DNA from: a virus | Strand: one strand, 5' to 3' | DNA: 64,000 bases | IMG/VR virus record: IMGVR_UViG_3300049893_003686 | Part shown: in pieces, positions 54,098 to 58,994 of the stretch | Position numbering within the stretch: position 1 is the stretch's first letter | Layout of the letters: the number at the start of each line of letters is the position of its first letter | Notes under the pieces: generated by a model | Databases searched by the model: none | Seen by the model: only the letters and a program-made list of their open reading frames with translations | What the model was told of the DNA's origin: nothing | Made by a program: the position numbers and the translations under genes

Positions 54098-54283
54098 ATG
54101 CAAGATACAGTAATTTTTCAAGGCATTACCTACCACCTTCCAACCGGCCATACTGAAGCTGAAATTCGAGCCGCGCTCGCTGAGCAGGCGCCCTCGATTA
54201 CCACAGCGCAAGTAGTCACCACCCTTAATGGCGATGGTTCAACTACCTGGGAGTTTTCAGAAAAGGCCGGCACCAAGGGCTGA
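54098..54283 (+). CDS. Small GC-rich protein. Candidate ubiquitin-like (beta-grasp) modifier ending in Gly.
   Basis: 61 aa ending ...AGTKG. Own RBS AGGAGAA. Followed directly by a strong terminator hairpin. About 50% GC versus about 35% in its surroundings. Confidence 0.35.
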   Translation: MQDTVIFQGITYHLPTGHTEAEIRAALAEQAPSITTAQVVTTLNGDGSTTWEFSEKAGTKG

Positions 54284-54303
54284 TAGCATTATGCAATAAT
54301 TAT

Positions 54304-54341
54304 GGCAGGAGGTTCTTTAAAAAGCCTCCTGCCATTTTGTT
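54304..54341 (+). terminator. Rho-independent terminator.
   Basis: Perfect 9-bp GC-rich stem GGCAGGAGG / CCTCCTGCC with an 11-nt loop, followed by ATTTTGTT. Confidence 0.7.
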
Positions 54342-54350
54342 GGAGAAATA

Positions 54351-54620
54351 ATGAAAGTAAGTAGTTTAAGTGATACTATATATCACATTTTTTTTGGCGA
54401 GGAGTTTCACCATCATGAAAATAATATAACTCGCATCCTCTCATCTAGCTCATTTGATAAACTGCTGCAAGTTTATCAAACCTTGCAACAAGAAGATAAA
54501 AATTATATTTTTGACAGTTGCATTCAGAAAAATGTGGCATCCTCAAGATTTTCGACACGCGATTGTCAAAATATTTTTATGAGAATGAGAGCTGTTGATC
54601 ATAACGCTGATTTCATATAG
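54351..54620 (+). CDS. Hypothetical protein.
   Basis: 89-aa ORF. Confidence 0.45.
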   Translation: MKVSSLSDTIYHIFFGEEFHHHENNITRILSSSSFDKLLQVYQTLQQEDKNYIFDSCIQKNVASSRFSTRDCQNIFMRMRAVDHNADFI

Positions 54621-54629
54621 GGAATTTCA

Positions 54630-55493
54630 ATGAGACTTAGAGAGCAGCTGGCGGCAGTATTGTTAAATCACGTTTATGTAGTAGAGCACAGTTTAGCTAT
54701 AGGAAGCAGGCATCGAAAACCAACATCCTCTAAATATAATGAGATAAATAGTTTAGATTTCGATGATACTAATGCCGCCGCTAAACTAATAAAATCATTT
54801 GCAACATTTAATGCCAAACATTTTATTGAAAATAATCGCTTCTGCCTAGATAAAGAGATTAGTGAAATTAATGGTCTACATATCGAATGGGCACCCAAAG
54901 TTCTTGTGCGAGGTCTATCCGGCAAGATTATCATATTAGGCATGCCATATATCAAGGCAGCTACTTTTCTAAATGCAATGAGATATGCGCGGCAATCAGA
55001 TGACTGCATTGCGACTATAAGTAATATAGGAGATCTCGCTGGTGCTAGCAGTACCATAGCAGCATCCAACGAGTCTGTCGCCGCAATATCAATCCTAATA
55101 CCTGGGATGAGAACATCTGCATATCTAAATTTAGCTATGGAACAAAGAGATTTAGATATTCTTTTTAGAAAAAAGATTAACTTTGCTAAGATTTTAAATT
55201 TATGTAATTCACTTTCAGCAGATGAGTATCAACAAATTTTAGATGGACAAAGCAATCTCTATGTAGAATTTGTTAACGGTAGTCCATTAGCAGTTCGTTT
55301 AGATGAAACTGATGCTGCACGAGCACAGAGATTAGCACGAGAGGCTTTAGAAGCATTGCGTATAGCAAGGACGATGGTAATAAATGACGTAACCGATACC
55401 TCTAATGCTATTACTTACAATGTAAGTCCAATTAATAACATAGAAAACACACAAGACTTTTCTGTAGATACAGACTTCTTATTCGGATGGTAA
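54630..55493 (+). CDS. Hypothetical protein, first gene of the tight E2-JAB-E1 operon.
   Basis: 287-aa ORF that ends 1 nt before the E2-like gene. Confidence 0.55.
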   Translation: MRLREQLAAVLLNHVYVVEHSLAIGSRHRKPTSSKYNEINSLDFDDTNAAAKLIKSFATFNAKHFIENNRFCLDKEISEINGLHIEWAPKVLVRGLSGKIIILGMPYIKAATFLNAMRYARQSDDCIATISNIGDLAGASSTIAASNESVAAISILIPGMRTSAYLNLAMEQRDLDILFRKKINFAKILNLCNSLSADEYQQILDGQSNLYVEFVNGSPLAVRLDETDAARAQRLAREALEALRIARTMVINDVTDTSNAITYNVSPINNIENTQDFSVDTDFLFGW

Positions 55494-56205: not shown

Positions 56206-56208
56206 TAT

Positions 56209-57372
56209 ATGAGCAACTCTCAGAATTTAGATTTAAAAACATTAATGGCCAGACAAAATACTGGATATATAACAGATGTGCAGTGGCCTACCGATCTCAA
56301 TCTTATTAAACCTATCAATTATATTGTTAGGCGAGATGGGTTATGGGAAATGCGTAAATCTCGAGCAGGAGTATTTGTGATGCAACGTGAGAAATTTGCC
56401 ACGCCACTACCGGGATTTCCTGAAGAAAATAATGTAGAATATGGACAAAGTCATTTCGGTAAGATCCCAGATGTTCTATTTAAGGAAATCATTGCATTTT
56501 TTAAGTCAATTTGTGATGAAAGCAAGGATGAAGCATATATACAGACATTCTGGGATCCTCTTGAAAAGAAGTGGTTTAATCACGTTCCAGTGCAACGTGT
56601 GAGTGGAGCGTCAGTTAATTTCGAACGCAACGTAGAACTAGAATCAAGATGCAACTTAGTATTAGAGACTCATTCCCATAATACCATGGAAGCATTCTTT
56701 TCTGGAACTGACAATGCGGACGAGAAGAGTGATAGGTTCTTTGGCGTAATAGGTCGATTAAATCAGAGCGTCCCCACTATGCTCTTTTCATTTGTTTGCG
56801 GTGGGAAAAGAGTTATTATAAATAAATCAGATATATTCGAATCAGAACCAGAGGTATCGTTTCCTTCTGATTGGAAGCAACGCATCACCAAATCTCAACC
56901 ACATCAGTCAAATTTATATTCTGGAGCTACTGGCTACACTCCACGTGCATATAATAACTATAAGTATAGCACTAGCCTAGCATATGAAGGCGAGGATGAT
57001 GTAGATGAAGCCATTTCAGAAGCGCGTCGTCGTTTAGGAGGTGCGACTACCAACCAACGTTTTTTTCCTCAAAACGCGAGAAGCGTAAACGAGACAAGCG
57101 CAACAGAAAAGGACGCTAATGCGAGCATTAGCAATATTATAACAAAGTTTAAGACATATGGAGTAACAATGACAAGAGTAGCAAAGCAGCGGATGTTTGA
57201 GAGTCTCATATCTCTTATGTCTGATGATGATGTAATTGATCTGGTCGGCTGTTTATTGGAAGCTGGACACGAGGAGACTATTGTAGCCTTGTTGCCAGAA
57301 GGGACAGTTGGTGCCGTTGAAGTAGATTTGACTGAAGCAAATAATGCGACAGAATTTGATTATAACGACTAA
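56209..57372 (+). CDS. JAB/MPN+ (JAMM) metalloisopeptidase domain protein.
   Basis: A perfect JAMM zinc motif HSHNTMEAFFSGTD (HxHx7Sx2D) is preceded by Glu (ETHSH). 387 aa with N- and C-terminal extensions. Confidence 0.7.
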   Translation: MSNSQNLDLKTLMARQNTGYITDVQWPTDLNLIKPINYIVRRDGLWEMRKSRAGVFVMQREKFATPLPGFPEENNVEYGQSHFGKIPDVLFKEIIAFFKSICDESKDEAYIQTFWDPLEKKWFNHVPVQRVSGASVNFERNVELESRCNLVLETHSHNTMEAFFSGTDNADEKSDRFFGVIGRLNQSVPTMLFSFVCGGKRVIINKSDIFESEPEVSFPSDWKQRITKSQPHQSNLYSGATGYTPRAYNNYKYSTSLAYEGEDDVDEAISEARRRLGGATTNQRFFPQNARSVNETSATEKDANASISNIITKFKTYGVTMTRVAKQRMFESLISLMSDDDVIDLVGCLLEAGHEETIVALLPEGTVGAVEVDLTEANNATEFDYND

Positions 57373-57381
57373 GGTGTATAC

Positions 57382-58239
57382 ATGACAAAGATCAATTCTT
57401 TAAATATAGAGCGCATTTATCCGCTAAAGCCTCAACCTAATATACATAATATCTTAGTTATAGGCTGCGGCGGAACAGGCAGCTATATAGTTCCTAATCT
57501 AGTAAGACTGGCGGTAAATGGCAAGCATCCAGTATGTATCACACTTGCTGATGCTGATATTGTTGAGCATAAGAATCTTATTAGGCAGAATTTCATCAAA
57601 TCAGATATAGGTAGAAATAAAGCAGAAGTTCTTGCAAGCAGATACTCTGCTGCATTCGGCACACAGCTTCAATTTATTCCAAAATACCTAGAGACAGCAG
57701 AAGCCATCGGCACAGCTTTATCTAAAGCTCAGATTAATAACATCTCCTATGGAAAGGCAACCCCGCTAATTATTTCGTGCGTCGATAATATTAAATCACG
57801 AAAGAAAATGATTGAGGCTCTGACACTGCATTACCCACGTGGAGCATATATAATTGATTGCGGAAATGAAGAGATGACCGGACAGGTGCTGCTGACATGC
57901 CTTACTACTACTAATACTCCAGCTGCCGGGCTCTATAGCACTCCGCATCTTTTTCAGTTATTTCCTGAATTAAATGAGAGGGAGAAGAATGATAAACTAG
58001 CTAGTGAATTAAGTTGCGCAGAGCTAGCAGAGTCATCAGAACAATTTGGGTTCGTAAATCTTAATGCGGCCACAATTGCTCTAAATTTCATTCATATGTT
58101 GTTAAATAGAAGCCATATATCAACATATATGACTGAGTTTTCAATAGAAAATAAATTCTCTCAGCGCTCTCTTAAAGAATCCGCCCTTAAATCTTGGGCA
58201 TCGTTTGGCCTAAATCCAGATATTGCTACAGTTAAATGA
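57382..58239 (+). CDS. E1-like (ThiF/MoeB/Uba family) adenylyltransferase.
   Basis: Rossmann ILVIGCGGTGSY plus LADADIVEHKNLIRQ (DxDxVexSNLnRQ E1 signature) plus CVDNIKSRK. RBS AAGGTG. Confidence 0.8.
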   Translation: MTKINSLNIERIYPLKPQPNIHNILVIGCGGTGSYIVPNLVRLAVNGKHPVCITLADADIVEHKNLIRQNFIKSDIGRNKAEVLASRYSAAFGTQLQFIPKYLETAEAIGTALSKAQINNISYGKATPLIISCVDNIKSRKKMIEALTLHYPRGAYIIDCGNEEMTGQVLLTCLTTTNTPAAGLYSTPHLFQLFPELNEREKNDKLASELSCAELAESSEQFGFVNLNAATIALNFIHMLLNRSHISTYMTEFSIENKFSQRSLKESALKSWASFGLNPDIATVK

Positions 58240-58253
58240 CAGGAGTATAACTG

Positions 58254-58994
58254 ATGCGGAGCCTCACCTTTGCAGAAAAATACACGTTCACATCGGACTT
58301 CTCTCCACTTAACATGAGTTTGATAGCGCAAACAGAATCAAAGGAGCTTGCAAGAAAATACTTCTTTACAAAATACTTTGTACCATTAGCCTTAACTGCC
58401 TGGTATCAAGTAGAAGATTTTTCGCCGGCGGATAAATCACATTGTATTTCAATTGAGTTATCTCACAGTGAAAATGGGCTAATGCCTATATTATCTTTTA
58501 TAAAGACAATCACATCAGACAGAACTCATTTCCCTAAAGAGATCTATGAAAAGATATGTAGAATGGTATTTACGAAGCACACGCCTGATACATGGCTTGT
58601 AAATCATGATCAAAACATTAATTTCGACAGAATCCTACATTCAGTCTTTCACGATTGTCTTCCTGAAGAAGGTAAAAATATTTTCAATACAATGCTTGGC
58701 TCTATTAGACGAGCATATATCGGAACTTTGGGTGGATATAAAGTTTCACTCAGTATCATGGTCAAGACGAAGGACAAAGTTCCCTCTCAGCGTGCCCTAT
58801 TTAATCAAGCAGTGCATAAATCGGACCCATTAATCCTAGTTAATTCACAGAAATATAATAAAATGTTTAATGAAATTACTGGTAAATGGGCATCTCCTTG
58901 TAACAAATCATCCGAAAGCATATGCGCAGCATGTAATGCTATATATAACAGTCCAGCTGCTGATAATGCCTATGATGATCCTACAATAACATGA
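58254..58994 (+). CDS. Hypothetical protein, last gene of the E1 operon (C-terminal Cys cluster).
   Basis: 246-aa ORF, 15 nt after E1. Motif CNKSSESICAACN. Confidence 0.5.
   Translation: MRSLTFAEKYTFTSDFSPLNMSLIAQTESKELARKYFFTKYFVPLALTAWYQVEDFSPADKSHCISIELSHSENGLMPILSFIKTITSDRTHFPKEIYEKICRMVFTKHTPDTWLVNHDQNINFDRILHSVFHDCLPEEGKNIFNTMLGSIRRAYIGTLGGYKVSLSIMVKTKDKVPSQRALFNQAVHKSDPLILVNSQKYNKMFNEITGKWASPCNKSSESICAACNAIYNSPAADNAYDDPTIT

Follow-up and report, generated by a model that had tools for sequence, protein, structure and literature searches.

We analysed a 64,000-nucleotide stretch of viral DNA (IMG/VR record IMGVR_UViG_3300049893_003686; "the window" below means this whole stretch), in which a compact block of genes at 54098-58994 appears to encode a complete conjugation pathway for a ubiquitin-like protein (Ubl). 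Seven open reading frames (ORFs), all on the + strand, occupy the block at exactly the coordinates that an earlier sequence-only reading of this DNA had given them. From 5' to 3' these are the Ubl (54098-54283, 61 aa); two lineage-specific partner genes, the small p89 (54351-54620, 89 aa) and the mid-sized p287 (54630-55493, 287 aa); an E2-like conjugating enzyme of the Prok-E2_D family (55495-56205, 236 aa); a JAB/JAMM (MPN+) metallopeptidase of the Prok-JAB family (56209-57372, 387 aa); an E1-like adenylating/activating enzyme of ThiF/MoeB type (57382-58239, 285 aa); and p246, an orphan downstream of E1 (58254-58994, 246 aa). A consensus scan places a terminator-like hairpin on the same strand after the Ubl gene (54302-54335).

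The sequence-only reading had recognised an E2, a JAMM/MPN+ peptidase and a ThiF-type E1 in what it took for a phage genome, and Pfam matches to Prok-E2_D, Prok-JAB and ThiF, all above the gathering cut-offs and far from what chance would give, substantiate the three enzymes. The motifs it had quoted are also in place: YPTPNIYSDARICWG spans residues 133-147 of E2, HSHNTMEAFFSGTD residues 155-168 of the JAB and DADIVEHKNLIRQ residues 57-69 of E1. What it had not recognised is the tag gene itself, the first ORF of the interval. It had further described a five-gene run from 54630 to 58994 with short intergenic gaps. The gaps are indeed 1, 3, 9 and 14 nt, but they do not delimit a run: p287 lies only 9 nt behind its upstream neighbour, and p246 is followed after 6 nt by a dUTPase gene and then, with a 4-nt overlap, by a helicase gene. 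With tight spacing on both sides, spacing alone therefore gives no operon limit at 58994.

All four core proteins find their best or only NCBIfam family in the PRTRC set, PRTRC_C for the Ubl, PRTRC_B for E2, PRTRC_A for the JAB and PRTRC_ThiF for E1, in every case below the family cut-off. PRTRC stands for ParB-Related, ThiF-Related Cassette (TIGR03735-03738 and others) and equals the class 6d operons of Iyer, Burroughs & Aravind 2006 (PMC1779556). The module had been called eukaryotic-like; its four core proteins are instead closest to this bacterial cassette.

The E1 scores 62.7 bits against Pfam ThiF (3.6e-17, cut-off 28.1), and its best-scoring model is PRTRC_ThiF (TIGR03736; 2.2e-34, 118.9 bits versus a cut-off of 144.75), a link that profile comparison with the plasmid proteins by hhalign puts at 99.8 %. 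Across 74 phage and plasmid E1s, residues G28, G30, G31, D59, N65, R68, Q69, K80, D135 and R140 are invariant, as is Cys212 (74/74), the candidate catalytic cysteine; G33 and D57 are conserved in at least 97 %. In the PDB it is most closely related to eukaryotic Uba1 (active adenylation domain), to MccB and to Cap2, and its Rossmann region (residues 21-105) matches the E1-E2 models of the cyclic oligonucleotide-based antiphage signalling system (CBASS) in the PADLOC library at 5e-11.

The E2 matches Pfam Prok-E2_D at 34.0 bits (2.9e-8, cut-off 25) and PRTRC_B at 24.4 bits against a cut-off of 131.45; by hhalign the PRTRC_B link stands at 27.5 % (E = 6.5e-4), weaker than those of the Ubl, JAB and E1. 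Its signature reads P-x-P-N137-x7-C145-x-G147, with Cys145 as the predicted catalytic residue, and P134, N137, C145, G147, N175, D177 and L178 are invariant in 45 divergent homologues. The Asn-to-Cys spacing of 8 is that of the canonical HPN-x7-C enzymes (UbcH5 Asn77/Cys85), and the HPN His is absent (T-P-N). The structure model of 55495-56205 is UBC-like, as had been proposed; it predicts a divergent UBC fold in which the Cys sits in the loop after the beta-meander, 8 residues past the conserved Asn. Sequence-profile searches of the PDB gave no meaningful relatives of the E2, the JAB or the Ubl.

The JAB passes the Prok-JAB cut-off of 25 with 27.7 bits (2.6e-6) and aligns with PRTRC_A (4e-14, 52.6 bits versus a cut-off of 101.8; 97.2 % by hhalign). 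A full JAMM set, E108, H155, H157, S165 and D168, is invariant in phage and plasmid versions. The N-terminal region of ~130 aa ahead of the JAMM motif also aligns with PRTRC_A and contains a near-invariant W115, whereas the C-terminal extension of ~170 aa, which ends in a conserved helix, is absent from plasmid PRTRC_A (~213 aa).

The 61-aa ORF at the head of the block is, judged by its sequence, a Ubl of the Prok_Ub/PRTRC_C type encoded in its mature form. A profile of the phage Ubls aligns with that of plasmid PRTRC_C over 58 columns (hhalign 95.8 %, E = 7e-9), and 12 of 23 aligned homologues match Pfam Prok_Ub at E <= 0.01, the best at 2.9e-28. The protein ends in ...KAGTKG with the stop codon immediately after. 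K60 and G61 are invariant among the 23 phage and plasmid homologues, a tail of the form G-[T/N/A]-K-G is near-universal across viral and plasmid Ubls, and single-domain forms mostly end at the Gly. Many relatives encode head-to-tail poly-Ubl with 2-6 repeats, each ending GTKG and often followed by a short extra tail at the end of the protein; gp211 of Bacillus phage vB_BceM_WH1, for example, is a five-repeat poly-Ubl. Tandem, nearly identical Ubl genes occur in two close relatives (L004:6347-6788 and L006:6272-6781), where the window has one; it is in more distant phages that the copies are fused into a single poly-Ubl ORF.

A small Ubl with a C-terminal Gly beside an E1 that matches ThiF/MoeB models and MccB structures could also belong to sulfur-carrier or peptide-adenylation chemistry, the E1 making a ThiS/MoaD-like thiocarboxylate or an MccB-like modification with no conjugation at all. 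We judge this very improbable. Against the ThiF/MoeB equivalog models the E1 scores only 22-51 bits where the cut-offs are 152-450, and it lacks a rhodanese domain. Genes for a JAMM peptidase and for a dedicated E2, whose Cys is invariant, always lie next to the E1 gene, poly-Ubl precursors make sense only if monomers are released, and the ORFs examined included no partner of ThiG, ThiH or MoaE type. The sequence-only reading had itself weighed a cofactor-biosynthesis E1 without an E2, and the adjacent E2 and JAB genes together with the low equivalog scores show a different arrangement.

The Ubl gene also differs from its neighbours in how it appears to be expressed. Its ribosome-binding site is the consensus AGGAG, and its GC content is 52 % (48 % at third codon positions), compared with ~32-42 % (~26-33 %) in the neighbouring genes; this odd composition may stem from a codon bias that favours high expression, or the gene may have another origin. 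The hairpin at 54302-54335 has a 13-bp stem with 7 G-C pairs and is followed by the T-run TTTTGTTGG, the 67-nt spacer after the gene folds at -28 kcal/mol (RNAfold), and similar hairpins with T-runs follow the Ubl genes of two relatives (L006 and L007). We infer that the hairpin helps to set the ratio of Ubl to enzymes. Given the ribosome-binding site, the high third-position GC and the hairpin with its T-run, the arrangement suggests that the tag is made in large excess over the enzymes.

The module is recurrent in large phages and not a one-off. A pattern scan of IMG/VR with the phage JAB alignment returned 131 matching contigs, of which 80 were fetched and analysed (the contig is 100 kb or longer for 44 of these loci and 200 kb or longer for 11); a scan with the E2 alignment, which needs conserved stretches, was too narrow and found one close relative only. 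At 70 % JAB identity the 80 loci fall into 52 lineages. Profile searches of their ORFs placed E2, JAB and E1 adjacent, co-directional and in this order in 72 of the 80, with a Ubl or poly-Ubl 1-3.5 kb upstream in 47; a relaxed search added 6, for a count of at least 53. The same E2-JAB-E1 order occurs in the cultured Bacillus phages WH1, Edson and KLEB27-3, Salmonella phage Arash and Vibrio phages D69, D181 and D148, while in Acinetobacter jumbo phage ME3 we saw only a gene for "PRTRC system protein A" (JAB) and a ThiF gene ~2.6 kb away. Cultured carriers are rare at the sensitivity used (10-15 of 50,697 records). Even so, 131 IMG/VR contigs and at least 10 cultured-phage records mean that the set had been overstated as unusual in a phage. 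In the window's own clade, three independent jumbo-phage contigs carry the whole block in synteny, with identities of 50-64 %, and from this conservation it appears to be under purifying selection. The module is less unusual than first thought, yet more complete.

Relatives extend well beyond these phages. The JAB pattern scan found 111 loci in species-representative bacterial genomes, mostly cyanobacteria, sphingomonads, Cupriavidus, Chloroflexota and Firmicutes, and a related E1 is present in 253 plasmid records. Canonical PRTRC cassettes with ParB have been noted in temperate Burkholderia prophages (2026 paper). The 220-kb Bacillus velezensis "plasmid" pAD3 (NZ_AP024502.1; our locus L009) carries a module of the phage type, related to that of WH1, with a four-repeat poly-Ubl, a 95-aa gene, a 536-aa gene, E2, a 392-aa JAB and E1, adjoined by a DNA polymerase III alpha gene; pAD3 may be a phage-plasmid or a misclassified jumbo phage.

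How closely does the module follow the PRTRC pattern? Class 6d operons were described as encoding a small Ub-like protein with a C-terminal glycine, a stand-alone E2 that lacks the classical HPN His and has an absolutely conserved His C-terminal to the Cys, a JAB whose JAMM catalytic set is complete and which has an additional alpha+beta domain at its N-terminus, and a rapidly diverging alpha-helical protein with conserved charged residues (PMC1779556). The window's predicted proteins agree with this description in the Ubl, a small protein ending ...GTKG ahead of the stop, and in the JAB, with its complete JAMM set and ~130-aa N-terminal region. The E2 does not: its HPN His is absent, as described, but the downstream His is not conserved, and the phage E2s have no invariant His. 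Where plasmid PRTRC_B has F-[TS]-H-x-N C-terminal to the Cys, phage E2s have an invariant P-F-N-x-D-L; the plasmid His is the "absolutely conserved histidine" of Iyer et al.

Gene order tells a similar story of likeness and departure. Three plasmid loci have the order ParB-E-C(Ubl)-F-B(E2)-A(JAB)-ThiF, and the window's Ubl-p89-p287-E2-JAB-E1 agrees with PRTRC order C-(F)-B-A-ThiF. Window and cassette thus share the four core families, the C…B-A-ThiF order, the G-x-K-G Ubl tail, an E2 without the HPN His, an E1 without a rhodanese domain and carriage on mobile elements. They differ in the sub-cut-off NCBIfam scores, the longer JAB (by ~170 aa), the E2 motif, the orphans p89 and p287 at the F position, the poly-Ubl precursors of phage-type relatives (in viral loci, cultured Bacillus and Vibrio phages and plasmid pAD3), the replicon, which is a large lytic-type phage, and the absence of ParB, E and F from the 64 kb. 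A profile of four plasmid ParBs found no PRTRC-type ParB among six-frame ORFs of the window (best E = 0.38), and one lies near only 2 of the 80 viral loci; a ParB or partition role was rejected for the window, which has no ParB. PRTRC E and F gave no hmmsearch match at E <= 1 in the window, and p89, p287 and p246 showed hhalign probabilities of < 1 % to either.

The eukaryotic parallel is real at the level of architecture. Eukaryotic polyubiquitin and the phage family share head-to-tail repeats, a conserved junction tail and a short tail after the last repeat, and the eukaryotic cascade of E1, E2 and deubiquitinase likewise has a UBC-fold E2 with Asn-x7-Cys and a JAMM isopeptidase. The window's Ubl, however, has no detectable sequence relation to ubiquitin and ends GTKG where ubiquitin has LRGG, its E2 lacks the HPN His, its E1 is a minimal ThiF-type enzyme, there is no recognisable E3, and the lineage is one of bacteria and mobile elements. 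We class the module, on these comparisons, as a PRTRC relative that fails several defining PRTRC features and is not eukaryote-derived. The PRTRC / class-6d family was already known, though uncharacterised; the phage-adapted variant is new, and full-text literature searches found no description of the module in lytic jumbo phages.

The interval between Ubl and E2 is the variable part of the locus. In most other lineages it holds a small gene of 75-130 aa, and in nearly every lineage a small gene (~75-130 aa) is paired with a mid-sized one (~200-590 aa), in varying order; across lineages the pairs are too diverged for phmmer to link. The window's p89 is syntenic in 4/4 clade members, has no family match beyond noise in Pfam, PHROGs, NCBIfam or PADLOC, and in profile comparisons matched neither PRTRC_E nor the small genes found in other phages. 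Its partner p287 stands at the position of PRTRC protein F, diverges rapidly and is modelled as mixed alpha/beta, with a conserved N-terminal helix, basic loop (GRxKRxPxSKxY) and C-terminal Trp. We considered whether p287 is protein F and rejected the assignment at the level of sequence profiles: the hhalign probability is 0.1 %, with no detectable homology. Nor did p287 show a profile link of >= 40 % to any other large "middle" protein or a fold match in the PDB or BFVD, and a recognisable PRTRC_F occurs in one viral locus only (L083). p89 and p287 are lineage-specific orphans. Position and variability suggest that a pair of this type may act as a rapidly evolving specificity element, or as a substrate.

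The membership of p246 is uncertain. It has a C-terminal Cys cluster and an AYDDP motif as conserved features and no family match in Pfam, PHROGs, NCBIfam or PADLOC. Across viral contigs it is E2-JAB-E1 that recurs, whereas p246 is syntenic in the window's clade only; the gene after E1 encodes a NADAR protein in WH1 and a "reverse transcriptase-like protein" in pAD3. Because other phages have different genes after E1, its place in the module is unproven, and the earlier description of p246 as co-operonic is not established.

Bacterial Ubl-conjugation systems, among them Bil, CBASS Cap2/Cap3 and Bub, were recently shown to be antiviral, and the window module resembles them in part. Bil (BilABCD) likewise combines a Ubl, an E2, a JAB deubiquitinase and an E1, and its operons reportedly conjugate the Ubl to phage tail proteins. 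Its Ubl, BilA, has two domains and is ISG15-like, and Bil is a chromosomal defence against phage, while here the carrier is itself a phage. A phage could carry such a system for defence or superinfection exclusion, tagging the proteins of competing phages or mobile elements as Bil does, and the homologues on plasmids, integrative and conjugative elements (ICEs) and temperate prophages would suit that role. We consider it improbable. In several lineages of large phages that appear to be lytic, the module is conserved at a fixed place. No PADLOC model matched beyond the generic E1 fold: the Ubl, E2 and JAB had no match at E <= 1 in PADLOC-DB v2.0.0 (2023), a library that may or may not include Bil models, and the E2 (Prok-E2_D) and Ubl (Prok_Ub) families are those of PRTRC. 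CBASS Cap2/Cap3 shares E1 and E2 chemistry, a JAB antagonist and a similar E1 Rossmann region. Cap2, however, is an E1-E2 fusion that conjugates the C-terminus of a cGAS/DncV-like nucleotidyltransferase (CD-NTase) without a separate Ubl; in the window the E1 and E2 genes are distinct and stand on either side of the JAB gene, the Ubl is dedicated, and no CD-NTase is associated with the module, although no window-wide CD-NTase search was made. On PADLOC evidence, with the same caveat about Bil models, the module does not appear to be a known defence system.

We favour the view, with a probability of roughly 0.72, that the block is a self-contained module for Ubl conjugation that acts for the large lytic phage carrying it, and that it is a variant of PRTRC / class 6d adapted to phages and lacking ParB. 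The 61-aa Ubl would be made in mature form with a free C-terminal Gly61, probably from its own strongly translated transcript that is partly terminated ahead of the enzyme genes. The ThiF-type E1 would adenylate Gly61 and then carry the Ubl as a thioester on Cys212, from which it would move to Cys145 of E2; E2 would place it on lysines of target proteins through an isopeptide bond. The JAMM peptidase would cut after G-T-K-G, both to mature poly-Ubl in relatives and to remove the tag from targets, and the hyper-variable pair, here p89 and p287, would set target specificity or be the target. Transfer from E1 to E2 to a target lysine, with the JAB maturing or removing the tag, is well supported, if indirectly, because the proteins are homologous to known components, the active sites are invariant, the modelled E2 fold is UBC-like and the gene order is kept. 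The least certain step is the last, in which the module would tag proteins of the host or of the phage, either at an early stage of infection or in morphogenesis, a role comparable to the one presumed for PRTRC on plasmids and ICEs.

Several points weigh against this interpretation. The window's own Ubl falls short of the family thresholds, with 18.7 bits against Prok_Ub (PF14454; E = 1.5e-3, threshold 25 bits) and 16.3 bits against PRTRC_C (E = 8e-3, cut-off 45.95), both matches spanning its C-terminal two-thirds. The neighbourhood is inconsistent over the 52 lineages, with nucleotide-metabolism genes in the window, terminase or structural genes in other lineages and no universal neighbour. 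The virion preparation of Arash discussed below contained 116 of 272 phage proteins, which makes it weak evidence for packaging. No evidence points to a conjugation target, full-text literature searches found no functional study of PRTRC or biochemistry for any family member, and according to a 2026 paper the function of PRTRC has yet to be studied. Overall, we favour a role that serves the phage, in which its own or the host's proteins are tagged, treat morphogenesis and counter-defence as sub-hypotheses of about equal weight, and regard defence or exclusion and sulfur-carrier roles as less likely.

The virion data come from Salmonella phage Arash, whose published proteome table lists Gp246-249 and Gp251. 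GenBank and paper numbering agree at gp239 (PAAR), after which the paper's number is GenBank's plus 1; the coverage percentages are exact integer ratios in 4/4 cases with an offset of 1 and in 0/4 with an offset of 0 or 2. Read in this way, particles purified by sucrose gradient contained the E1 (gp246c in GenBank, 77 % coverage), the JAB (gp247c, 61 %), the E2 (gp248c, 100 %) and the 320-aa middle protein (gp250c, 76 %). The Arash Ubl is a 66-aa ORF ending RRTGTKG-stop (L002:107-307; OQ632216 complement, about 180513-180713) that is unannotated, with gp251c called over it in another frame, and therefore neither the Ubl nor Ubl-modified peptides could be found in the published search.

These detections fit a morphogenetic or structural role, in which the Ubl would be conjugated to the phage's own virion proteins for stabilisation, decoration or control of assembly, or would serve as an assembly chaperone in the manner of TAPI/TAPK. 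That role has been proposed for TAPI/TAPK of lambda, and in lambdoid and T1 phages TAPI (Ubl) and TAPK (JAB + NlpC/P60) likewise pair a beta-grasp Ubl ending in Gly with a JAB; they lie in the tail module without E1 or E2, for processing only, and belong to different families. The module lies back-to-back with the large terminase gene in 17 of the 52 lineages, about a third, and adjoins structural genes in Arash; the Ubl looks highly expressed; and the WH1 poly-Ubl is annotated as a "virion structural protein", a label whose basis we could not trace. In the window's clade, however, the neighbours are dUTPase, helicase, AAA, Dam and NUDIX genes and not structural genes, the Arash preparation was very inclusive, and the homologues on plasmids and ICEs have no virions. 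We hold a morphogenetic role to be rather unlikely.

Packaged enzymes could also act on entry, which brings in counter-defence. Here the phage would neutralise host Ubl immunity (Bil, CBASS Cap2/Cap3 or Bub), by JAB deconjugation or through a decoy Ubl that floods or diverts the host machinery, or else would tag defence proteins to inactivate them. The sequence-only reading had raised deconjugation and a decoy, and also the tagging of virion or host proteins, and our results do not tell tagging and counter-defence apart. Host defence systems have core enzymes of homologous kind, the E1 Rossmann region matches CBASS E1-E2 models, and the hyper-variable gene pair between Ubl and E2 is what an arms race would give. 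On plasmids, the neighbours of PRTRC are orphan methylases, helicases and ParB-like genes, a setting typical of establishment regions. Yet deconjugation alone would need only the JAB, and the phage has also retained the Ubl, E1 and E2, their active sites intact; the lack of PADLOC matches for Ubl, E2 and JAB speaks against close mimicry of known defence components. Counter-defence, too, seems to us an unlikely account.

The genome that carries the module is apparently that of a jumbo phage, an assignment that is well supported but indirect. Nearly all genes of the 64-kb window lie on one strand, GC content is ~39 %, at least one tRNA is present, and close relatives of the E2 sit on metagenomic contigs of 142-368 kb. 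Accessory genes of large phages recognised with PHROGs and Pfam include NAMPT, a cytidylyltransferase-like protein, an ATP-dependent DNA ligase, a ClpA/B-like ATPase, Ro60/TROVE, an S8 subtilase, dUTPase, an XPD/DinG-like helicase and a Dam methylase. No structural gene was found in the window, and megablast against phage records gave no cultured close relative at the nucleotide level.

Two AAA+ proteins drew our attention as possible unfoldases in a Ubl-proteasome-like link, a ClpA/B-like double-AAA+ protein (14628-17222, +; Clp_N, AAA, AAA_2 and ClpB_D2-small) and a classic-clade AAA ATPase (61354-62775, +). This link was rejected, as neither co-occurs with the module in other viral loci; the classic AAA had no relatives in cultured phages at E <= 1e-8, and the Clp-like protein was not searched there.

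Other features of the window stand on their own. Two identical tRNA-like elements of ~87 nt lie 16.5 kb apart (25709-25789 and 42249-42329, +); each scores 42.1 bits against Rfam tRNA, its anticodon loop reads CTCATAA, its variable region is long and its CCA is encoded. Neither is called by ARAGORN. A gene for a Ro60/TROVE+vWA protein lies at 37853-39460; the partner RNAs of bacterial Ro60 (YrlA) contain tRNA-like modules. An NAD+ salvage pair at 6134-8768 (+), in which a cytidylyltransferase-like (NMNAT-like) gene (6134-7243) overlaps that for nicotinamide phosphoribosyltransferase (7215-8768), is one we take to resemble the phage NAD+ reconstitution pathways reported as counter-defence. Further unusual cargo, spread over 9817-13163, 28478-30802, 43837-44925, 47849-49327 and 50663-52498, encodes a dihydroorotate dehydrogenase, a class I/II aminotransferase, a 774-aa protein with a C-terminal OmpA domain, an FtsK/SpoIIIE-like ATPase, an S8 subtilase and a 611-aa orphan without a family match.

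The module is a mirror image of the antiviral Ubl systems, a complete set of Ubl, E1, E2 and JAB carried by a virus and recurrent in large-phage lineages. PRTRC / class 6d was predicted in 2006, with functional tests not found in the searchable literature, and the presence of the module in cultured phages with tractable hosts makes what it tags a directly testable question. Poly-Ubl with its conserved GTKG junction offers a clean biochemical handle and a striking parallel to eukaryotic polyubiquitin, and the orphan fold of p287 may be a new kind of specificity factor. We tentatively put forward a bolder reading: the module may be a "ubiquitination" weapon of phages and mobile elements that covalently tags specific host proteins, with the p89/p287-type pair as an exchangeable E3-like substrate adaptor of new fold, and with the enzymes, possibly also the Ubl, packaged in the virion or made at once on entry to disable or redirect defence or replication factors. 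If true, this would be the first complete Ubl cascade encoded by a bacterial virus for host takeover, and it would assign a function to the PRTRC cassette, uncharacterised since 2006.

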